From sequence record OL451225.1: a DNA stretch of 64,000 nt. One strand, written 5' to 3'. Shown here in pieces: positions 6,342 to 60,745 of this stretch (position 1 is the first letter of the stretch; each line of letters opens with the position of its first letter). This stretch comes from Escherichia phage P896. The translations under genes were made by a program, and so were the position numbers. The notes beneath the pieces are model-generated. The model saw only the letters and a program-made list of their open reading frames with translations. It searched no databases and was not told the origin of the DNA.

Positions 6342-9300
6342 ATGGCTACTTTAAAATCGATACAATTTAAAAGAAGTAAAACACCAGGAGCCAAGCCTAC
6401 TGCAGCTCAGTTAGATGAAGGCGAACTGGCTATTAACTTGCGTGACCGTACTATTTTTACCAAGTCAGACCAGGGACAGATTATTGATTTAGGCTTTGCT
6501 AAAGGTGGTACTATTGATGGTGATGTGACTATTAATGGTAAATTTACTTTAAATGGTGCGCATGTTCAGACATTAGGTGGTATTAATACTACTGGCGGAA
6601 TTTATTCCGGCGCGGATGTGAGTGCATTGATTTATCGTGCTCGAAATGGTTCGTTTTATTCTAGAGCGTCGAATGATACTTCTAATGCTCATTTGTGGTT
6701 TGAAAATACCAACGGTTCTGAACGCGGTGTTTTATATGCCAAACCCCAGCTTGAAAATGAAGGCGTAATTACCATGCGCGTTCGCCAGGGTACTGCTGCC
6801 GGTGCGCAAAATTCAGAGTTCCATTTTATTTCTAATGATGGTGGTATTTTCCAGGCACGCAAATTAACTGCTTTAACTTCTATTAGTACACCAACTATTA
6901 GTGTTAATTTAATTAATCATGATTCAAAAACATTTGGACAATACGACAGTCAATCTTTAGTTAACTACGTATATCCAGGCACCGGCGAAACAAATGGTGT
7001 AAACTATCTTCGTAAAGTTCGAGCTAAATCAGGCGGAACCATTTATCATGAAATTTGTACGGCTCAAACAGATCAGGCAGATGAGGTTTCTTGGTGGTCC
7101 GGTAATACACCATCATTTAAATTATATGGTATTCGTAATGACGGCCGAATGATCGTCCGCAATAGCGTAGCCATCGGGACCGTGACTGCAGGATACCCGT
7201 CAAGCGACTATGGTAATGGTGCCGCTTTAGGATTCGGTGTTTATTTAGCTCTAGGCGATAACGGGACGGGGCTGTCATACAAAAAAACCGGTGTATTTGA
7301 TTTAGTTGGTTCAGGGAATTCTGTCGCATCTATTACTCCAGATAGTTTCCGTAGTACTCGTAAAGGTATATTTGGTTGTTCAGAAGACCAAGGCACCACA
7401 TGGATTATGCCTGGCACTAATGCCGCTTTCTTGTCTGTTCAAACACAAGCTGATAATAACAATGCTGGAGACGGACAAACTCATATTGGATACAATGCTG
7501 GCGGTAAAATGAGTCATTATTTCCGCGGTAAAGGCAAAACTAATATTAATACTCAGGAAGGTGTAGACGTTAACCCTGGTATATTGAAGTTAACCACCGG
7601 CAGTGAAAGTATTAGCTTTAATGCCGCAACTGGAAGTATTAATTCTACATTAGCTTTTCGTCTTAATAAAGGCATAATTATTGACGGACCTGATAATCAG
7701 GGATTCCAGTTTAACGCCCCGACGGCCGCAGATGGTACTAGAAGTATATACTGGAATAGTGGTACTCTCGCAGGTCAAAACAAAAACCCTGTTACAGTTA
7801 AAGTGTGGGGTAATTCATTTAACGCATCTGGTGATCGTAATCGTGAAACCGTTTTTGAAGTAGCTGATGGGCAAGGTTATTATTTTTACGCTCAACGTAC
7901 TAATCCTGCATCAGGTCAAACGGTAGGTCCGGTCAACTTTAAATTTAACGGAACTGTCGAAACAGGTCATATCATAGGCCTTGGAAATATAAGTGCCTCC
8001 GGTACAGGTTCTTTCGGTGGCAATGTTACCATGTCTAATGGTTTGTTTGTCCAAGGTGGTTCTTCTATTACTGGACAAGTTAAAATCGGCGGAACAGCAG
8101 ATGCATTAAGAATTTGGAATGCTGAATATGGCGCTATTTTCCGTCGTTCAGAAAGTAACTTTTATATTCTTCCAACCAATCAAAATGAAGGCGAAAGTGG
8201 AGACATTCACAGCTCTTTGAGACCTGTGAGAATAGGATTAAACGATGGCATGGTTGGGTTAGGAAGAGATTCTTTTATAGTAGATCAAAATAACGCTTTA
8301 ACTACAATAAACAGTAACTCTCGCATTAATGCCAACTTTAAAATGCAATTGGGACAGTCGACATACATTTATGCAGAATGTACTGATGCTGTTCGTCCAG
8401 CAGGGTGTGGTTCCTTTGCATCACAGAATAATGAAAACGTCCGTGCTCCGATTTATATGAATATAGAGCGTACTGCTACTTCTGAATATATTCCTATTGT
8501 TAAACAGCGGTATGTTAAGGGTAACGGTTGCTATTCATTAGGGACTTTAATTAATAATGGTAACTTTAGAGTTCATTATCATGGTGGCGGAGATAATGGT
8601 TCAACAGGACCACAGACAGCTGATTTTGGATGGGAATTTATTAAAAACGGTGATTTTATTTCTCCTGGTAGAATTATTGCCGGTGCTGCTATTCTTGGCA
8701 CTGATGGTAATATCACCGGTGGCTCTGGTAACTTTGCTAACTTAAACAGTACAATTGAATCACTTAAAACTGATATTGTTTCAAGTTATCCTATTGGAGC
8801 CCCAATTCCATGGCCAACGGATACTCCTCCTAATGGTTATGCTTTGATGGAAGGTCAGACCTTTGATACTGCAGCTTATCCTAAGCTCGCTATCGCATAT
8901 CCTACAGGTACTATTCCGGATATGCGTGGACAAACTATCAAGGGTAAGCCAAGTGGGCGTGCTGTGTTGAGTGCAGAAGCTGATGGTATTAAGTCCCATA
9001 CCCATGGTGCATCTGCTTCGAGTACTGACTTGGGCACTAAAACCACATCAAGCTTTGATTATGGCACTAAAACATCTTCAAGCTTTGATTATGGTACTAA
9101 AACTACCAACACCACAGGTAACCATAACCATAGTGTTAGTGGTAATACCAACACCACAGGTAACCATAGCCATAGAGATGGACGTCGATTTAACCCCAGT
9201 ATTTTTAAAGATACTTATCAATATGGTTATACAAGCTCAGGTCAAAATAACTGGGGTGTACAAGGCTCAGTAGGTATGTCTATGGGGTGGTTAGCGAATA

Positions 9301-9530
9301 CCAGTACAGATGGTAATCATAGCCACTCGTTCTCGGCTACTACTAACACAACAGGTAACCACGCTCATACTGTTGGTATCGGTGCCCATACTCACACTGT
9401 AGGTATCGGCGCTCACACTCACACGGTAGCGATTGGTTCACATGGACACTCTGTTACCATTAACAGCACCGGTAATACAGAAAACACGGTTAAAAACATT
9501 GCTTTTAACTATATCGTTCGTTTAGCATAA
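6342..9530 (+). CDS. 37: Long tail fiber distal subunit gp37 (receptor-binding fiber, T4 type with His-box tip)
   Basis: 1062 aa ORF; C-terminal region has GNHSHS / [34 protein letters not shown] His-x-His repeats and ends [11 protein letters not shown], as I recall for T4 gp37; a phage tail collar-like motif ([23 protein letters not shown]) precedes it. Confidence 0.9.
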
Positions 9531-9557
9531 GGAGAGGGGCTTAGGCCCCTTCTGAAT
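9531..9557 (+). promoter_or_regulatory. Translation-initiation-region hairpin of gene 38 (split ribosome binding site)
   Basis: GGAG at 9531-9534, then a 6 bp stem/tetraloop hairpin (AGGGGC tta g GCCCCT, 9535-9550), then 7 nt to the ATG at 9558; linear SD-ATG spacing is 23 nt. Confidence 0.55.
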
Positions 9558-10103
9558 ATGAAAATTTATCATTTTTATTTTGACACAAAAGAATTTTACA
9601 AAGAAGAAAATTATAAACCAGTTAAAGGCCTTGGTCTCCCGGCCCATTCAACAGCTAAAAAGCCTTTAGAACCTAAAGAAGGATATGCAGTTGTATTTGA
9701 TGAACGCATTCAAGATTGGATTTATGAAGAAGACCATCGAGGCAAACGTGCATGGACTTTTAATAAAGAAGAAATCTTAATAAATGACATAGGAAGCCCA
9801 GTCGGTATAACTTTCGATAAACCTGGCGAGTTTGATATATGGACAGATGATGGCTGGAAAGAAGATGAAACATATAAACGAGTGATGATTCGCAATCGAA
9901 AAATTGACGATTTGTATAAAGAATTCCAGGTATTAAGTAATATGGTTGAAGCCTCAGTCGCCGATAAGAAAGAAAAATTCTATCACCAGAATCTTAAACG
10001 TTTCTTTGCTCTTTTAGAAAAACACGAACACCTCGGTGGTGAATTCCCGGCTTGGCCAGAAAAAGAGAAAAAATCATTCTTCAAAAGATGGTTTAAAAAA
10101 TAG
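9558..10103 (+). CDS. 38: gp38, T4-type tail fiber assembly chaperone (short form, not the T2-type adhesin)
   Basis: 181 aa ORF directly after 37 (T4 gp38 about 183 aa; the T2-type adhesin is about 260 aa). Confidence 0.85.
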   Translation: MKIYHFYFDTKEFYKEENYKPVKGLGLPAHSTAKKPLEPKEGYAVVFDERIQDWIYEEDHRGKRAWTFNKEEILINDIGSPVGITFDKPGEFDIWTDDGWKEDETYKRVMIRNRKIDDLYKEFQVLSNMVEASVADKKEKFYHQNLKRFFALLEKHEHLGGEFPAWPEKEKKSFFKRWFKK

Positions 10104-10143: not shown

Positions 10144-10797
10144 ATGGAACCAAAAGTAGGATTTTCATTATCAGACCTACTTTTTGGACTTCTTGATAGA
10201 ATTTTTAAAGATAATGCGACCGGGAAAGTTGTTTTTTCCCGGGTACTAGTTATTGTTCTATTATTTTTAATGGCGGTAATCTGGTATAAAGGTGATGCAA
10301 TTTTAGATGCGTACAGGGATGCTTCATATGCCTCGTACACAGAAATGATAAGGCAAGACCAGGATAACAGATTTAAAATTGCAGCTATCGAGCAAATCCA
10401 GATAGTTCACTCATCAAGCGGGGCTGACTTCACGGCGATATATTCTTTTAGACCAACTAACCTTAACTACTTTGTGGATATGGTAGGGTACGAGGGGATA
10501 TTACCTGAATCAGTTGATGAAAAAAATTTGGGTGGGTTTCCAATAGATAAGACTTCAGCAGAATATTTGGCGGGGGTTAATGGTAATTATTTTGAATCCA
10601 GTACGGAATCTGTATTCTTACCAACAAAGAAAAAAAGCAGCTTCGCATATATGTTTAGCTGCCCATTCTTTAATTTGGAAAACGTTTATGCAGGTACAGT
10701 CTCGCTGTACTGGTATAAGCAAAAACCTATCCTTGGTTTTGATAGGCTTTCTGCTATGTGTGGACAAGCAGGTCGTACGCTTGGGCGTACACGTTAG
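10144..10797 (+). CDS. t: Holin T (lysis timing / lysis inhibition)
   Basis: 217 aa (T4 T about 218 aa); N-terminal TM segment (VLVIVLLFLMAVIWY) followed by a large periplasmic domain; position after 38. Confidence 0.9.
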   Translation: MEPKVGFSLSDLLFGLLDRIFKDNATGKVVFSRVLVIVLLFLMAVIWYKGDAILDAYRDASYASYTEMIRQDQDNRFKIAAIEQIQIVHSSSGADFTAIYSFRPTNLNYFVDMVGYEGILPESVDEKNLGGFPIDKTSAEYLAGVNGNYFESSTESVFLPTKKKSSFAYMFSCPFFNLENVYAGTVSLYWYKQKPILGFDRLSAMCGQAGRTLGRTR

Positions 10798-11069
10798 AAT
10801 CCGGAGGTATACATCATAAGATAACGGTGTATATCTTCGAATCCTTCGTTAAATTGTTCAATGATTTGTTCAATTTCATCTTCAGATAAACTTTTAAACA
10901 ACTTGTTAAACGATACATTGTTTAACTCATTACCATTCTCATTCCTCAATCCCAACTCATTCAAAAACGCGATAAACACATCACGCTTCATCGTAATATC
11001 TTCCCGGTCGGTTTTAATCAAAATTGAAGTTACAGTAACAATTTCAGAAACGATTTCAAATTTAGTCAT
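10794..11069 (-). CDS. asiA: Anti-sigma70 factor AsiA
   Basis: 91 aa; motifs ...VTSILIK..REDI...FIAFLNE...EQFNEGFE...RYLMMYT match my recollection of T4 AsiA (90 aa); convergent with t, overlapping by 4 nt. Confidence 0.85.
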   Translation of the reverse strand: MTKFEIVSEIVTVTSILIKTDREDITMKRDVFIAFLNELGLRNENGNELNNVSFNKLFKSLSEDEIEQIIEQFNEGFEDIHRYLMMYTSGF

Positions 11070-12748: not shown

Positions 12749-13357
12749 TCACTTTAAGATGTTAATAACATGTTGAATGTTTTCAGTTGACATAACGTTG
12801 TCAATGTAGGTATTCAATCCACCTACTTTAACGCTAAATCCCACGTCTGTAAACTGTTTTACTATCTTTTGTTCAGTATTATACGCATGCACACGAATCT
12901 GACCATCACGACGTACATCAATCTGTTTTAATGTCTTGATACGTTTGAACTTCACAATCAGATTGCTGCGGTCTTCTGAAATGCTCTTAAAGTCAATACC
13001 AATAGACAACAATTGCTCTTTGATATATTCTGCAGTCGCTTCCATTTCATCAGTCACACCGCGTTTTGTTCTTGTCTTTTTCACTTCCAGAAGGTCAGGA
13101 TTATTTTCATTCGCCCAAAGTTCAGCTGCATCCAGAATAAGGTCAACGCCTTTTTCTGTAACCATCAAACCATCACCAGAAGCTTCAACATAGTTGTTAT
13201 TCAACAAGGTCTGTACGCTATCAATTGATGTGTTCTGCTGGTCTAAAACAACCTCTGGACTCACGAAGTTGTTTTTGTATACAAACACCAGAGCATTGAC
13301 ATCAGTCTCATGCAGCGCGTTCTGGGAGCATTTAACGATATAATTTAACTTGTTCAC
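12749..13357 (-). CDS. motA: Middle transcription activator MotA (candidate)
   Basis: 202 aa (T4 MotA 211 aa); between the asiA/arn block and gene 52 as in T4; divergent from the T4 sequence I recall, so partly positional. Confidence 0.6.
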   Translation of the reverse strand: MNKLNYIVKCSQNALHETDVNALVFVYKNNFVSPEVVLDQQNTSIDSVQTLLNNNYVEASGDGLMVTEKGVDLILDAAELWANENNPDLLEVKKTRTKRGVTDEMEATAEYIKEQLLSIGIDFKSISEDRSNLIVKFKRIKTLKQIDVRRDGQIRVHAYNTEQKIVKQFTDVGFSVKVGGLNTYIDNVMSTENIQHVINILK

Positions 13358-13690: not shown

Positions 13691-13788
13691 TAGTCTTTAT
13701 CTATCTTATTACCAATAAACATACCAACAATCACACCTGCGATTGCCGCAAAAATACAAAGCAATGCAAACTCAACTCCAAAACTCAT
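13690..13788 (-). CDS. Small hydrophobic peptide (32 aa)
   Basis: MSFGVEFALLCIFAAIAGVIVGMFIGNKIDKD read by hand; ATG overlaps the gp52 stop (ATGA). Confidence 0.3.
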   Translation of the reverse strand: MSFGVEFALLCIFAAIAGVIVGMFIGNKIDKD

Positions 13789-15164
13789 AGAGCCTCCAAA
13801 TCATTAAGGTATTCAGTTTTAACATCAGTTGTCTTCCAGTACTCATGCTCAGCTTTCTTAGCCTTTGCTTCGTCTGCAAGCTTCTTGGCTTCATCAGAGG
13901 TCATATGGTAGATGTTCATCGCCACTAACTTCTCTGCATAATCGCCATATATTTCACTCGCCTGGAGTTCCTCAATCAACTTCTTACGAGGTTTCCCCTG
14001 GATAACAACCTTACCATCAATCACTTCTTTAATAAAGAAGACTTTCGCGCGGGCCAGTTTAAATGCCGCTTCAGTTTCTTTAATCTTACTGTCAATTCGC
14101 ACTTGAACATAAGTCTTACGGACATCAACGAAATCGCGAATCAGGTCAAGCGTGTTGGTGTATTCAGCCAGCTTGCCTTTGTGATTAAGCACCGTTAAGT
14201 TCTGGGAGAGCTTCTCAATCAGACCGAAGTCTTTCATGATTTTCTCATGATTCTCTTCTTCAGTACCATCCAGCTTGTATTCTTTGCGGAATTTAATCTT
14301 AAACCCGAAACCATGCTCGCCGCAGTTATCTTTCCAGGTGATAAAACCTTTCTCTTCCAGTGGGTCCAGAATTTTACTTATATACTTTTCCAGGTTCCAT
14401 TGGACCGGGATTTCAGTAATTTCCATTTGAGTCCTGGAGGTCATTTTGTATGTGCCATGAAGCTCATACTTGCCAGGCTCTTCCAATTCAACAACTTTGC
14501 CACGGAATTCTGGATATTTTACTTTCGGAGCAACCGGCTCACGACCTTCCACGATAGCTTTAACAGCTTCCTTGACGTCCTGGAACGAATGAGGAAGAAT
14601 ATCAGTAGCGAAGCCAACAGCAATCCCAGAAGTGGCGTTAAGTAATACAGTAGGAATAACAGGAAGATAAAAAGCAGGAGGCTTATGTTCTTCATCAGGA
14701 TGGACCGGAGCATATTCTGTATCCTTAAACAAGTTATAAAAGTTCTTTGAAACCCTTGCGAATACATAACGAGCTGATGATGCTTCTGGCACCATTCTGG
14801 AACCAAAGTTACCTTGCCCATCAAACATGGGGTATTCATTTTTATATGTTGCAACCAGACCAGAAGTTGCTTCTTCCGCTGATGCTTCGCCATGGTGATA
14901 ACCATAATCAGCTACGCCACCTGCAATGGATGCAACCTTATGGAATTTATTCTTATCACCGCGCGCCAGGTCTAATGCTCTCGCCATAACAAATCTGTGA
15001 ACTGGTTTAAAACCATCAATCATGTTTGGGATGGCACGACCTTCCACAGTGTATATAGCATATGACAATGCTTCCACATCAATAATGTCTTTTAGACTGC
15101 GTGGGTTAAGGGTCCCCATGGAATCACTGAACTGTTTGGACATCATACTTAAAACGTCAGACAT
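13785..15164 (-). CDS. 52: DNA topoisomerase II medium subunit gp52 (GyrA-like)
   Basis: 459 aa (T4 gp52 about 442 aa); GyrA/ParC-type N-terminal motifs (RAIPNMIDGFKPVHRFV...). Confidence 0.9.
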   Translation of the reverse strand: MSDVLSMMSKQFSDSMGTLNPRSLKDIIDVEALSYAIYTVEGRAIPNMIDGFKPVHRFVMARALDLARGDKNKFHKVASIAGGVADYGYHHGEASAEEATSGLVATYKNEYPMFDGQGNFGSRMVPEASSARYVFARVSKNFYNLFKDTEYAPVHPDEEHKPPAFYLPVIPTVLLNATSGIAVGFATDILPHSFQDVKEAVKAIVEGREPVAPKVKYPEFRGKVVELEEPGKYELHGTYKMTSRTQMEITEIPVQWNLEKYISKILDPLEEKGFITWKDNCGEHGFGFKIKFRKEYKLDGTEEENHEKIMKDFGLIEKLSQNLTVLNHKGKLAEYTNTLDLIRDFVDVRKTYVQVRIDSKIKETEAAFKLARAKVFFIKEVIDGKVVIQGKPRKKLIEELQASEIYGDYAEKLVAMNIYHMTSDEAKKLADEAKAKKAEHEYWKTTDVKTEYLNDLEAL

Positions 15165-23140: not shown

Positions 23141-24973
23141 TTATAGCGTCGCATTCATCCAATCTTTACGCTGTTGGGAATCTTTACCGAATAGCATTTC
23201 GAACAGTTCTTTCCAGTTATCAGGCAATTGAACAACTTCGAATACCGGCTCGAGCAATACGCGTTTGTACTCAGAATCTTCCAAAGAACCAAGCCCCTTG
23301 ATATATCGGATGGTGTGCTTCGGAAGTTTATCCTTAGCTTCTTCATAGTCAGGAAGAGAATAGAACCATTCTTGTTTGTCTTTGAGCTGCGCAATAATAA
23401 CAGGAGTTTTCACAAAGCGAATTCGTCCTTCATGGAACAGCTCTGGCCAGTTACTGAAAAACGCCAATAACGATGGATAGATACTACCGACACCATCCAC
23501 ATCCGCATCTGTCATGATAGCAATGTTTCGGTAATTCATATTCTTGGCCGGTTGTCCAATCGTTAACCCAGTAATTGCACACACATCAAAGGCTTCAGCG
23601 TTCTTCATAACTTCAACAGCTTTCAGACCCCATGTGTTTTTAAACTTACCACGTAATGGATAAGCACCTTGCAATTCACGGTCGCGAACCTTAATAAATG
23701 GCCCTGTTGCAGAATCACCTTCGGTCAGGAACAGAGTCGTTTCCAACTTATCATTGCCCCATTCGTTGGCTTTGATATGCTTTTGTACCTTGGCCTTTGA
23801 AGCTTTCTTATTTGCTTTAGTCTCTGCTGCTTTCTCTGCAGCCAATTTACGGGCTAATGCAGCTTCAACAATCGGCATAATCAGCGGTTCATTTTTCAGA
23901 ATAGCTTGTGCGATTTTCTTGGCATCAATCTTGATGTGATTTCGAATTTCACCGGCCGGAGAAGTCAATCGCTCCTTAGTCTGGGAATCAAATCGCATAT
24001 TGCTCATATCGCGGATGAACATAAGCATGGTGAGGCATTCTTTAACTCGTGCCTTGGTCACCTCAATGCCTTTATATTTGCGCTTAATCGCTGGTTGAAG
24101 ATGTTCGCAGATATCATCCATAACACATTCAACGTGGTGCCCGCCATTCTTTGTATGAATGTTGTTGACATAAGTCAACTGACGAAAACCATCCGGGCTA
24201 GTCGTAAAGGCCATCGATACCGTATCAGTTTCCTGGATAACAACTTCGGTTCCAAATTGCTTGGAGAACTTCTTGAAGTTGCCATCAACCTTTTTACCAT
24301 TAAAGGTAAACTGAATATCCGGATAAACAACTGCAAGAGTCTGTAGACGGTCCAATGTAATATCCAGATAAATCTGGGACAGACTATTTTCTTCAAAGTG
24401 ACTAAAGTCTGGAATAAATATAACAGTCGTACCTTTACCCTTTGATTTCTTAGTCGACCAACATTTGTTTTCCATACCGTTGGAGCAGTTAACAGTGATT
24501 TCATTTGCACCATCAGCGGTAATCCCGGTGAACAATACAGAGAAAATATTAGTCAGAGAAGACCCGACGCCATTCATCCCGCCAGTTTTACGTTCAGCAT
24601 CATCGCCAAAGTTGCCACCTGCTTTTGGAATAGTCCATGCTGCAACAGGGCCAGGGATTTGTTCACCGTTTTGGTCTGTAACCATTGCTTGTGGAATACC
24701 ACGGCCATTATCAGAAACCGAAATCTGATTATCTTTAATTTGGACATCAATTTTATTGGCAAATTTAAAACTGGTGCGAATTGCTTCATCAACAGAGTTA
24801 TCGATAATTTCATCAATCAGTTTTACAATACCAGGAACATAGCTTACGGACTTATATTCACCAAACAAGAATCGCTCATGCGCTTCATTTGAACTGGAAC
24901 CAATATACATCCCGGAACGTTTTTTGATATGCTCGACGTCCGAGAGTACTTTAATTTCATTATTAATCATCAT
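23141..24973 (-). CDS. 39: DNA topoisomerase II large subunit, unsplit (T4 gp39 + gp60 equivalent; GyrB-like ATPase plus Toprim)
   Basis: Single 610 aa ORF with GHKL ATPase motifs (IDNSVDEA, DNGRGIP, GGMNGVGSS) and a Toprim-type C-terminal half (LFLTEGDSA...); T4 splits this into 39 (about 516 aa) and 60 (160 aa). Confidence 0.9.
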   Translation of the reverse strand: MMINNEIKVLSDVEHIKKRSGMYIGSSSNEAHERFLFGEYKSVSYVPGIVKLIDEIIDNSVDEAIRTSFKFANKIDVQIKDNQISVSDNGRGIPQAMVTDQNGEQIPGPVAAWTIPKAGGNFGDDAERKTGGMNGVGSSLTNIFSVLFTGITADGANEITVNCSNGMENKCWSTKKSKGKGTTVIFIPDFSHFEENSLSQIYLDITLDRLQTLAVVYPDIQFTFNGKKVDGNFKKFSKQFGTEVVIQETDTVSMAFTTSPDGFRQLTYVNNIHTKNGGHHVECVMDDICEHLQPAIKRKYKGIEVTKARVKECLTMLMFIRDMSNMRFDSQTKERLTSPAGEIRNHIKIDAKKIAQAILKNEPLIMPIVEAALARKLAAEKAAETKANKKASKAKVQKHIKANEWGNDKLETTLFLTEGDSATGPFIKVRDRELQGAYPLRGKFKNTWGLKAVEVMKNAEAFDVCAITGLTIGQPAKNMNYRNIAIMTDADVDGVGSIYPSLLAFFSNWPELFHEGRIRFVKTPVIIAQLKDKQEWFYSLPDYEEAKDKLPKHTIRYIKGLGSLEDSEYKRVLLEPVFEVVQLPDNWKELFEMLFGKDSQQRKDWMNATL

Positions 24974-25014
24974 CTTTCCTCTTGTGTATGGAGGTATTAT
25001 AAGTCACATATTTT

Positions 25015-25038
25015 AAAGCAAAAAGGCCCGAAGGCCTT
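25015..25038 (-). terminator. Intrinsic terminator-like hairpin
   Basis: aggcccgaaggcct hairpin followed on the minus strand by a T-run, at the 3' end of the lipoprotein gene. Confidence 0.5.
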
Positions 25039-57990: not shown

Positions 57991-58461
57991 TTAATCATGT
58001 TTCCACACCCCATCGGTATTTGACCAAAGTCGCTGATTATCCGACCCTCGCCACAGTTTTTTGGTCGGAAGATTTTTCTCATACTTCCCATCAATAATAA
58101 CATCAACATATTTAAGCATTTCTAGTTGTTTAATATCTTCAAACTTATATCCTGTCCACATCCAAATGCTTTTATTGGGATAAAGATTTTTAATAGTTTG
58201 AACCACAGAGTGAATAACATCTCGGTTATCAGGATAGAGAGGGTCTCCTCCGGTTATAGTTAATCCTTCTATATAATCATTATTCAAACATTCAATTAAT
58301 TGTTCTAGTGTTTTACCAGTAAATGGAACACCATTTCTAGCATTCCATGTTGATTTATTATAACACCCTTCGCATTTATGCAAACAACCTGTAACGAAAA
58401 GAACGACCCTGCATCCAGGGCCATTCACAAAATCGCAAGGATAAAATCTATCATAATTCAT
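57991..58461 (-). CDS. nrdG: Anaerobic ribonucleotide reductase activating protein NrdG (radical SAM)
   Basis: 156 aa (T4 NrdG 156 aa); Cys cluster GCLHKCEGC. Confidence 0.9.
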   Translation of the reverse strand: MNYDRFYPCDFVNGPGCRVVLFVTGCLHKCEGCYNKSTWNARNGVPFTGKTLEQLIECLNNDYIEGLTITGGDPLYPDNRDVIHSVVQTIKNLYPNKSIWMWTGYKFEDIKQLEMLKYVDVIIDGKYEKNLPTKKLWRGSDNQRLWSNTDGVWKHD

Positions 58462-60275
58462 TGGTGTTTAACCCTATGCATGATTTCTTTATTTTTGCCG
58501 AGATTAAATCCGCGTTCGTTCGGATTTCCCAAATAACCACAAGTTCTTCTTATTGTGTTCATCTTTTTAGGGTCAGTTTCTCCACAAATAGAACAAACAA
58601 ATCCGTTTTCAGTAGGAGTCATTTCATGGGTACTTCCACATGTAAAACATTTATCTACTGGCATATTAACACCAAAATAATCTAAATGTTGTGCAGCATA
58701 ATCCCACACAGCCTCAAGACCTTTTAGGTTATTTTTCATATCAGGAAGTTCAACATAAGAAATGTGACCGCCTGTCGCAATGAAATGATACGGTGCTTCG
58801 CGAGAAATCTTTTCAAACGGAGTAATATTTTCTTCTACTGAAACATGGAAACTATTAGTGTACCAGCCTTTATCAGTAACATCTTTTACACTTCCATATT
58901 TTTCAGTATCAAGTTTACAGAAGCGATAGCACAGGTTTTCAGCAGGAGTAGAATACAAGCTAAAAGCAAAACCGGTTCTTTCGGTCCACTGCTTAAGACG
59001 AGCATTCATTTTAGTTAAAATTTCTTGCCCAATATCACGACCGACAAGAATATTCAATTCGTGAATACCAATGTATCCCAAAGACACTGAACTTCTACCG
59101 TTTTTAAATAACTCAATTATATCATCATCGGGTTTAAGACGAACCCCGAATGCACCTTCTTGGTAAAGAATAGGAGCAACAGTCGCTTTAACTCCTTTTA
59201 AGGAATTAATTCTACACATCAAAGCTTCAAAACACAAATCCATTCGCTCATTGAACAATTCAGTAAATTTCTGTTCATTGAACTGTGTTCCAATATAAGA
59301 ATCTAACGCAATACGAGGAAGATTCAGTGTTACAACGCCAAGATTATTACGCCCATCAAGAATTTCATTACCAGCCGAATCTTTCCATACGCTCAAGAAA
59401 CTACGGCAACCCATCGGAGAAACAGGAACTGAAGAACCGGTAATAGCTTTATTATTCTTAACCGAAATAATGTCAGGATACATTCTTTTGCTTGCACACT
59501 CTAAAGCAAGCTGCTTAATATCATAGTTCGGGTCGTCTTTATAAAGATTAACACCTTCTTCAACGAACATAACAAGTTTAGGGAAAATAGGAGTTATCCC
59601 ATCACGACCAAGACCTTTAATACGATTTTTCAGAATTGCTTTCTGAATCATTCGTTCGGTCCAGTCAGTTCCGGTACCAAATGTAATTGTCACAAAAGGA
59701 GTCTGACCATTTGAGCTAAAGAGAGTATTTACTTCATATTCATAAGCTTGGAATGCGTCGTATACGTCTTTTTCTGTTTTAGATTGTGCATAATTCAACG
59801 CATCAGTGATTTGCCATTTTTCCGCGTCCTCAATATGTTTCGCATAGGTACGTTTAACATAAGGAGAAAGTACTTTATCTACATTCGCAAAAGTCGTTCC
59901 GCCATATTGATGGGAAGCAACCTGTGCAGTAATTTGTGCCATAATTGCAGTAGCAACACTGATTGATTTAGGAGTTTCAATCTGTGCATTACCGAGCTTA
60001 AACCCGTTCTCAAGCATTCCTTTTAAATCTACTAAACAGCAATTAGTAAATGGAAGAGCAGGGGAATAATCAATATCATGGAAATGAATAATTCCACTTT
60101 CATGTGCTTTCATAATAAAAGACGCGACCATATTTTTGGCAATGTGTTTAGATACAATACCAGCCATAAGGTCCCGTTGAGTTGGAAAAACACGAGAATC
60201 TTTATTAGCATTCTCGTTTAAAAGGTCTTTATTAGTTTTATGAATCAATCCTTCAATTTCGTTTTCAATTGTCAT
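58458..60275 (-). CDS. nrdD: Anaerobic ribonucleoside-triphosphate reductase NrdD (glycyl radical enzyme), uninterrupted
   Basis: 605 aa continuous ORF (T4 NrdD 605 aa after intron splicing); C-terminal glycyl-radical motif RRTCGYLG and Zn-ribbon cysteines. Confidence 0.93.
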   Translation of the reverse strand: MTIENEIEGLIHKTNKDLLNENANKDSRVFPTQRDLMAGIVSKHIAKNMVASFIMKAHESGIIHFHDIDYSPALPFTNCCLVDLKGMLENGFKLGNAQIETPKSISVATAIMAQITAQVASHQYGGTTFANVDKVLSPYVKRTYAKHIEDAEKWQITDALNYAQSKTEKDVYDAFQAYEYEVNTLFSSNGQTPFVTITFGTGTDWTERMIQKAILKNRIKGLGRDGITPIFPKLVMFVEEGVNLYKDDPNYDIKQLALECASKRMYPDIISVKNNKAITGSSVPVSPMGCRSFLSVWKDSAGNEILDGRNNLGVVTLNLPRIALDSYIGTQFNEQKFTELFNERMDLCFEALMCRINSLKGVKATVAPILYQEGAFGVRLKPDDDIIELFKNGRSSVSLGYIGIHELNILVGRDIGQEILTKMNARLKQWTERTGFAFSLYSTPAENLCYRFCKLDTEKYGSVKDVTDKGWYTNSFHVSVEENITPFEKISREAPYHFIATGGHISYVELPDMKNNLKGLEAVWDYAAQHLDYFGVNMPVDKCFTCGSTHEMTPTENGFVCSICGETDPKKMNTIRRTCGYLGNPNERGFNLGKNKEIMHRVKHQ

Positions 60276-60745
60276 TTTAAACTCTTTCTAAGCTGCTTCT
60301 TAAATGAAGCCATTAATTGTGTTTTTGTGTCAGATTCATTATAATTCATACCGTTCAAAAGCATTTCCCGAATCATTTCTTCTTTCCCCAGGCGACCGAA
60401 CTCTTTGGCTTTGTCTGCCACAAAATTAGGGTGAATATTGTTTTCGGTATAATCAGATTTCAGATAGACAAGCAAACTCTCTAACCATTCCAGGTAGTCA
60501 ACATCGCGACCTTTTAGACCCGAACGGCTGAACTTATGCTTCATTTGTCCTTCTGTTCCATTGCACAGATTGCATAGTAACCCGCGAACCTTACCGGCTT
60601 TTGGTCCGTTCAATTCGTGGTCATGGTCAAGATGGTTGGCCTGAACATCAGAGTCCAAATCACGGTGGCAAATTGGACACTTACCAGCTTGTGCATCATA
60701 AAGTTTTTGTTTTTCTTCTTTGTATAATTTGCCAGTCAACAACAT
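60272..60745 (-). CDS. 49: Endonuclease VII gp49 (Holliday junction resolvase)
   Basis: 157 aa; near-identical over its full length to T4 endonuclease VII as I recall it (MLLTGKLYKEEKQK.YDAQ.GKC.IC.R.L..DVQANHLDHDHELNGPKAGKVRGLLCNLCN..EGQMKHKF.RSGLKG...DYLEWLE.LL.YLKSDYT.NNIHPNFV.DK.KEF.RLGKEEM..EML..G..YNESDTKTQL.ASFKKQLRKSLK). Confidence 0.95.
   Translation of the reverse strand: MLLTGKLYKEEKQKLYDAQAGKCPICHRDLDSDVQANHLDHDHELNGPKAGKVRGLLCNLCNGTEGQMKHKFSRSGLKGRDVDYLEWLESLLVYLKSDYTENNIHPNFVADKAKEFGRLGKEEMIREMLLNGMNYNESDTKTQLMASFKKQLRKSLK

Follow-up and report, generated by a model that had tools for sequence, protein, structure and literature searches.

The open reading frame (ORF) on the minus strand at positions 23141–24973 of the 64,000-nucleotide stretch of the Escherichia phage P896 genome analysed here (the window) is almost certainly an ordinary, never-interrupted gene 39 of the genus Gaprivervirus, encoding the GyrB/ParE-like large subunit of a T-even type IIA topoisomerase, in a phage whose long tail fibre is of the T4/lambda-type design. 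No result of the analysis spoke against this identification. Both the gene and the P896 genome are already deposited and annotated in GenBank, and the observation of an unsplit gene 39 is, in itself, an ordinary one. The initial annotation of this DNA had described the gene as a 39+60 fusion and had taken its combination with a T4-type fibre module as the mark of a mosaic T-even phage that is not T4. The evidence on the topoisomerase gene supports a different history from the one implied by the word fusion, and the signs of mosaicism lie in the fibre locus.

Gene 39 and its partner subunit

Gene 39 is a single ORF of 610 amino acids with an ATG start codon and zero in-frame stops, according to both the ORF listing and a check of the sequence. 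Two adjacent ATG codons open the frame, one at position 24973, which gives a protein of 610 aa, and one at 24970, which gives 609 aa. The GenBank entry UHS65224.1, which bears the name "DNA topoisomerase large subunit" and is an exact match of the 609-aa gp39, uses the second ATG, and the N-terminus of T4 gp39 aligns from the same codon. The assignment of the gene draws on the ORF list, Pfam, PHROG and the available protein structures. In Pfam, gp39 matches HATPase_c (E=2e-10), DNA_gyraseB (E=4e-15, residues 251–386) and TOPRIM_C (residues 523–608), and in PHROG residues 1–609 match phrog_543, 'DNA topoisomerase II large subunit', with E=2e-278. The GHKL ATPase domain is present with its N-box, G1 and G2 motifs (DNSVDE at residue 58, DNGRGIP at 88 and GGMNGVG at 131), the transducer domain carries the QTK loop (residue 331), and the Toprim domain, which shares one chain with the ATPase, contains EGDSA (residue 418), PLRGK (439) and the acidic motif DADVDG (residues 489–494; 23492..23509, minus strand), with no stop codon after the last of these in the motif scan or in the sequence. 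Each of these catalytic motifs is intact. The best match among solved structures is the single-chain gp39 of phage T6 (PDB 8ylu_C; 1034 bits, residues 2–607), behind which ranks the artificially fused T4 gp39–gp60 (8yo3). At the level of primary sequence, gp39 is 99.5% identical to the gp39 proteins of phages TH54 and SP18, and that of SP18 is annotated as 610 aa. Gene 39 also contains antisense ORFs, one of them of 146 aa at 23906..24346, which lie entirely inside this strongly conserved coding gene.

The GyrA/ParC-like partner subunit is encoded by gene 52 (13785..15164, minus strand), the product of which matches Pfam DNA_topoisoIV (E=1.4e-77) and shares 69% amino acid identity with T4 gp52. 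With its GHKL ATPase, transducer and Toprim domains, gp39 would assemble with gp52, encoded 8 kb away, into an A2B2 type IIA topoisomerase like that of T2 and T6, and this enzyme would relax DNA during phage replication. The topoisomerases II of T2 and T6 are active two-subunit enzymes, and the structure of the single-chain T6 gp39 has been solved (2024, PMC11461880). From the continuous ORF and this active, solved T6 homologue, we infer that P896 gp39 would be made as one polypeptide and would support ATP-dependent relaxation.

The region 5' of gene 39 (24996..25038, minus strand) contains, as seen in the sequence and in a hairpin scan, a terminator-like hairpin (25038–25023) followed by TTTGCTTTA (25022–25014), a spacer of 12 nt and TATAAT (25001–24996). 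The combination of TTTGCTTTA, 12 nt and TATAAT resembles the consensus of the T4 MotA-dependent middle promoters, and gene 39 is probably transcribed from this putative MotA-type middle promoter just upstream. A sigma-70 promoter scan near gene 39 returned fewer sites than expected from shuffled controls (5 versus 6.9), and terminator-like hairpins near the gene were more numerous than expected (7 versus 1.6). Scanned against Rfam at the gathering thresholds, the entire window gave zero matches to known RNA elements.

The site of the T4 split and the distribution of the unsplit form

The unsplit 610-aa gene described in the initial annotation is confirmed: its frame is uninterrupted, and the protein is collinear with T4 gp39 followed by gp60. 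Residues 1–473 of T4 gp39 (516 aa) align with residues 2–476 of the window protein at 73% identity, and residues 28–159 of T4 gp60, a sequence built for the comparison by deleting the annotated 50-nt gap, align with residues 476–607 at 70% identity, the two homologies abutting at codon 476 of the window gene (nt 23546–23548). The position of the T4 MobA cassette and of the 50-nt bypass gap corresponds to codons 476–495 (23489..23548, minus strand), which are continuous here, as judged from the alignment end points, the sequence itself and a gap-free alignment. The T4 take-off site, after the glycine of DADHDG, is equivalent to G494|V495 (nt 23492/23491) of the window protein. The sequence at this bypass position reads GAT GGT GTC GGT AGT (D-G-V-G...), with no stop, 50-nt gap or T4 gap sequence, and neither GGATAG nor a take-off/landing GGA pair with a stop was found there. 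In the alignment, window gp39 has no counterpart of T4 gp39 residues 474–516 (the 43-aa CTE) or of T4 gp60 residues 1–27 (the NTE), and no HNH endonuclease ORF or remnant splits gene 39, which remains a single ORF. An in-frame stop or a bypass element, which the initial annotation had named as evidence that would speak against it, is absent from the whole of 23141–24973. Compared with T4 gp39 plus gp60, P896 thus encodes a homologous enzyme without the MobA ORF, the CTE, the NTE, the GGA pair and the coding gap.

The same gene, with 609 or 610 aa, is present in the Gaprivervirus phages SP18 (YP_003934630), VR7, VR20, VR25, TH54, CJ20 and UPEC01, where it is accompanied by the same neighbours as in the window (rIIA, rIIA.1, 39.1, 39.2 and goF) and differs from the window gene by point substitutions only. 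SP18 has an additional 132-aa ORF between 39 and 39.1, and an ORF annotated as an endonuclease lies close by in VR7, RZ and VR26; neither of these ORFs is found in the window. The unsplit gp39 of the T2/T6 type, exemplified by T6 (PDB 8YLU) and KIT03, is likewise a single chain that contains the ATPase, transducer and Toprim domains, pairs with gp52 and is collinear with the window protein over its full length. This protein belongs to another genus and shares about 74% amino acid identity with window gp39, which differs from it by three additional internal residues and, slightly, in how the C-terminus ends.

With the 610-aa protein as query, tblastn identified a gp39 homologue in 2,198 phage records, and in 1,986 of these at least 80% of gp39 is found in one place. 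The MobA-derived 43-aa CTE of T4, searched for in the same way, is present in only 62 phage records, of which 43 represent the T4 clade; those outside that clade are Proteus, Acinetobacter and Aeromonas phages, and none of the 62 belongs to Gaprivervirus. The unsplit gene is the default form, found in approximately 97% of the phage records with a gp39 homologue. The split of the topoisomerase gene has been attributed to endonuclease insertion (Edgell et al. 2010, PMC2988022), and the MobA element has been described as a mobile cassette that was independently inserted in several clades, near-identical 'parental' relatives without the interruption existing for each of these (Manning and Atkins, bioRxiv 10.1101/2022.08.31.505936). 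The unsplit gene 39 is therefore ancestral and uninvaded, and the T4 split is derived. The description of the gene as a '39+60 fusion' reverses this history, and fusion is the wrong word because the unsplit gene is parental and the T4 arrangement arose from it when the MobA homing-endonuclease/bypass cassette was inserted.

In the P896 lineage, this cassette would never have entered gene 39. The opposite possibility, that the gene was at one time split by a MobA cassette and regained its single ORF when the cassette was lost by excision ('hit and run'), as proposed for one clade of Aeromonas phages, appears extremely improbable. Real cases of such secondary re-fusion exist, but they retain CTE- and NTE-derived residues at the insertion site (bioRxiv 10.1101/2022.08.31.505936), whereas codons 455–520 of the window gene align gap-free to both SP18 and the unsplit Tequatrovirus KIT03, the gp39 of which is annotated with 'identity to both gp60 and gp39 of T4', and include no residues resembling the 43-aa CTE or the NTE of about 27 aa. 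The lack of CTE matches among Gaprivervirus records also speaks against such an excision, and no scar of a MobA 'hit-and-run' event was found when sought in gene 39. The region of gene 39 equivalent to the deleted/homR region, compared to see whether a good target for T4 MobA is preserved, shows only 69% nucleotide identity to the Tequatrovirus parental sequence.

The distal fibre module and the question of mosaicism

Gene 37 (6342..9530, plus strand) encodes the distal subunit of the long tail fibre, a protein of 1062 aa that is an exact match of UHS65192.1, an entry from the same P896 record as those matched by gp38 and gp39, and was assigned on the basis of PDB 2XGF, phrog_1699 and the count of HxH motifs. 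Residues 789–1062 match the T4 gp37 tip (PDB 2XGF) with E=6e-95, and the C-terminus, which includes the Pfam domain Collar, shows the T4/lambda-type succession of collar, HxH needle and head, with 8 HxH motifs in the needle versus 7 in T4. Across the entire protein, amino acid identity is 70% to T4 gp37 and only 54% to that of SP18, and among approximately 15 billion proteins gp37 is the sole member of its 90% cluster. Gene 38 (9558..10103, plus strand) encodes a T4-type, Tfa-like tail-fibre assembly chaperone of 181 aa (phrog_105, 'tail fiber assembly'; exact match of UHS65193.1), which is 88.9% identical to T4 gp38, 95% to that of VR25 and 99.4% to that of DCP80, and which falls with T4 gp38 in one 90% cluster. 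The gp38 adhesin of the T2/T6 type is a protein of about 260 aa, as against about 180 aa for the short chaperone (Trojet 2011). No T2-type adhesin is present between gene 37 and the holin gene t, where gene 38 is the only ORF. In an arrangement of this kind, the C-terminus of gp37 would itself be the adhesin, its head setting the receptor, and gp38 would act as a Tfa-like chaperone that helps the gp37 trimer to fold.

The T4-type fibre tip, which the initial annotation had recognized from a His-box gp37 and a short gp38 without a T2-type adhesin, is supported by the match to 2XGF, the HxH motifs and the 88.9% identity of gp38. The likeness extends to lambda: like the T4 gp37 tip (2XGF) with gp38, and like Stf with Tfa in lambda, the window module combines a collar, an iron-binding HxH needle and a Tfa-like chaperone, and an 11-residue C-terminal ending is common to window gp37, the T4 gp37 tip and lambda Stf. 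Compared with the T4 tip, window gp37 has one more HxH layer and one more SSFDYGTKT repeat, both of which are also found in lambda orf-314; two small repeat duplications are shared with lambda orf-314 and absent from T4 and from PhiR68_2. The T4/lambda-type fibre design is common to other members of Gaprivervirus.

P896 is a member of the genus Gaprivervirus (SP18/VR7 group; subfamily Tevenvirinae according to the NCBI classification), and its nucleotide identity to the group comprising SP18, VR7, TH54, TH57 and CJ20 is 92–96% by megablast over the gene 39 region and the first 25 kb; the G+C content of the window is approximately 40%. The backbone is 65–78% identical to that of T4 at the nucleotide level, and the phage is, as the initial annotation held, not T4. 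Amino acid identity to T4, gene by gene, is lowest for MotA (33%) and reaches 73% for gp39, with gp38 as the outlier at 89%. In a sliding profile, nucleotide identity to T4 is 62–66% before position ~8000, rises to 80–96% over 8000–9000 and again over 9400–9900, and drops back to approximately 60% in gene t. Because the identity of gp37 and gp38 to T4 jumps above that of the flanks, and because gp37 is closer to T4 than to SP18, it follows that the Tequatrovirus and Gaprivervirus lineages have traded the distal fibre and chaperone module. The fibre locus is the usual hot spot of recombination, and its plasticity is well known (Trojet et al. 2011); the gp37/gp38 ('chaperone') cluster has been described as the variable block within the genus in a 2022 paper on Gapriverviruses. 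In the 2010 annotation of SP18, gp37 and gp38 are labelled 'similar to T4' and most of their neighbours 'similar to JS98'.

These identity values, 80–96% of nucleotides to T4 in the fibre tip and gene 38 (89% of amino acids for gp38) versus approximately 60–78% of nucleotides in the backbone and 33–73% of amino acids in other proteins, are what can be said in favour of regarding the unsplit gene 39 and the T4-type fibre as an unusual pairing, derived from a mosaic of T4-like and T2/T6-like parents. Such a parentage is nonetheless very unlikely, as the unsplit gene is the default among gp39-homologue records and the two characters are not linked: a T4-type gp38 (at least 60% identity) is present in 206 phage records, the T4-clade split of gene 39 in only 43, and it follows that most phages with a T4-type fibre carry an unsplit gene 39. 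The same pairing occurs in SP18, VR7, VR25 and Tequatrovirus teqskov (H111, H164), and the backbone of P896 is that of Gaprivervirus, not of T2 or T6. The pairing of an unsplit gene 39 with a T4-type fibre is uninformative on mosaicism. Of the view of P896 as a mosaic T-even, what survives is the mosaic character of the fibre locus, evident in the identity profile; the gene 39/fibre combination is no marker of it, and P896, with the sequence backbone of a separate genus, is not a mosaic of T4, T2 and T6.

A lambdoid-like receptor-binding head in gp37

Between the two T4-like stretches of the fibre module, at approximately 9000–9400, lies a part of gene 37 that is unlike T4. In tblastn searches, the best matches to this stretch are the Stf proteins of seven lambdoid temperate phages (80–85% identity over 81 aa), and the best T-even match reaches only about 49%. 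A codon-level comparison places the difference in the head: residues 942–992 are identical to Stf of PhiR68_2 at 94% of amino acids and 96.7% of nucleotides, versus 27% and 41%, respectively, for T4, whereas the collar and both needle segments show 65–71% nucleotide identity to PhiR68_2 and 75–80% to T4. In the nucleotide alignment, the stretch of near-perfect identity runs between approximately 9160 and 9327, and each of its breakpoints falls within a GNHSH codon block. Together, the tblastn matches, segment identities and breakpoints outline a receptor-binding head cassette of approximately 170 nt (9159..9328, plus strand) that is bounded by the codons of the GNHSH His-boxes. A sensitive blastn search of 50,697 phage genomes detected this cassette in only 7, all of them lambdoid, at 95–96% identity, and in no other T-even record. 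The heads of the lambdoid Stf proteins of PhiR68_2, mEp460 and Kati are 94% identical to the window gp37 head in amino acids and 97% in nucleotides. The receptor-binding head of T4, with its OmpC/LPS specificity, is not the head of window gp37, to which it is 27% identical in amino acid sequence.

Related prophage stf genes are common in the host species, being present in 1,142 of 5,426 complete E. coli genomes, which, along with the solitary position of gp37 in its 90% cluster, could point to an assembly chimera of phage and host prophage reads. The cassette is, however, only about 170 nt long, in frame and flanked on both sides by sequence that is T4-like rather than prophage-like; the His-box codons that bound it span 15 nt, too short to mislead an assembler; it differs by approximately 4% from every lambdoid copy; and the same sequence is present in the deposited P896 genome of 170,656 bp. 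An assembly artefact thus has very little probability. A genuine exchange, in which a virulent T-even phage recently traded just the fibre head of approximately 170 nt with the stf gene of a lambdoid phage or prophage of E. coli through recombination inside the GNHSH codons, is the account that we favour with some reserve, based on the near-perfect identity within the cassette and the location of its breakpoints. The swap would have taken place by homologous recombination between the His-box motifs and could have proceeded in either direction. The lambdoid head represents a new allele, and a clear instance of an old principle rather than a new category, because a lambda origin has already been assigned to the T4 g37-C/g38 module (Trojet et al. 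2011) and RBPs of both phages have been grouped in a 'T4- and lambda-based RBP family' (Magaziner and Salmond 2022).

For the topoisomerase, P896 adds another unsplit T-even gene 39, which is usable as a 'naive target' sequence in studies of MobA homing. The fibre head offers a tidy illustration of the classical His-box-mediated swapping of adhesins between T-even and lambdoid phages, and its breakpoints represent natural, functional graft points, with a lambdoid Stf head on a T4-type needle, that could serve the engineering of host range. Should an infecting phage have picked up the head from a prophage resident in its host, P896 would provide a clean example from nature of host range being retargeted by exchange of a single cassette, here with a temperate siphovirus and a lytic myovirus as the two partners.

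The surroundings of gene 39

Upstream of gene 39 (23141..24973, minus strand), the uninterrupted gene for the topoisomerase large subunit, the minus strand carries at 24996-25038 a terminator-like hairpin, AAGGCCTTCGGGCCTT, with a T-run, directly followed by TTTGCTTTA, 12 nt and TATAAT. We take the arrangement of TTTGCTTTA, 12-nt gap and TATAAT to resemble a MotA-dependent middle promoter of T4, which makes it a candidate promoter of gene 39; the window also encodes homologues of motA (12749..13357) and asiA (10794..11069).

The spacer separating gene 39 from 39.1 is just 63 nt long (24974-25036), as it is in TH54, TH57, VR20 and VR25, whereas SP18, also a Gaprivervirus, has an additional 132-aa ORF (SP18_gp006) at this place, and in VR7, RZ and VR26 an ORF near gene 39/39.1 is annotated as endonuclease VII or "putative endonuclease". 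On these comparisons, the interval looks like an indel hot spot adjoining gene 39.

The nrdG-nrdD-gene 49 region

On the minus strand at 57991-60745 lie nrdG, nrdD and gene 49. The nrdD of the window (58458..60275, 605 aa) lacks an intron and overlaps nrdG by 4 nt, and mobC does not lie between these two genes. The 3' part of nrdD is 94.0% identical in nucleotide sequence to T4 nrdD exon 2, and its 5' part together with gene 49 is 86.8% identical to T4, values that far exceed the 65-80% of the backbone. The alignment break in nrdD falls at the exact position of the T4 I-TevII intron site. The high identity to T4 in nrdD and gene 49 could reflect either strong conservation or past exon co-conversion.

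The distal tail fibre subunit gp37

The receptor-binding head of gp37 (9159-9328, plus strand) matches, at approximately 96% nucleotide identity, the side-tail-fibre gene (stf) found in seven temperate phages of the lambdoid group, including PhiR68_2, mEp460_ev081 and Kati, and a search of phage records found it in no other T-even record. Both flanks of the head are T4-like, and the breakpoints fall within GNHSH His-box codons.

Relative to T4, gp37 also contains two small in-frame duplications, an additional SSFDYGTKT (9045-9075) and an additional GIGAHTHTV (~9375-9401), the latter adding one more HxH layer to the needle; lambda orf-314 likewise has both.

Over its whole length (6342-9530), gp37 is 70% identical to T4 gp37 but 54% to that of SP18, with which it shares an identical first 60 aa followed by strong divergence. 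This pattern of sequence identity argues that the distal-fibre shaft, too, is a patchwork within the genus.
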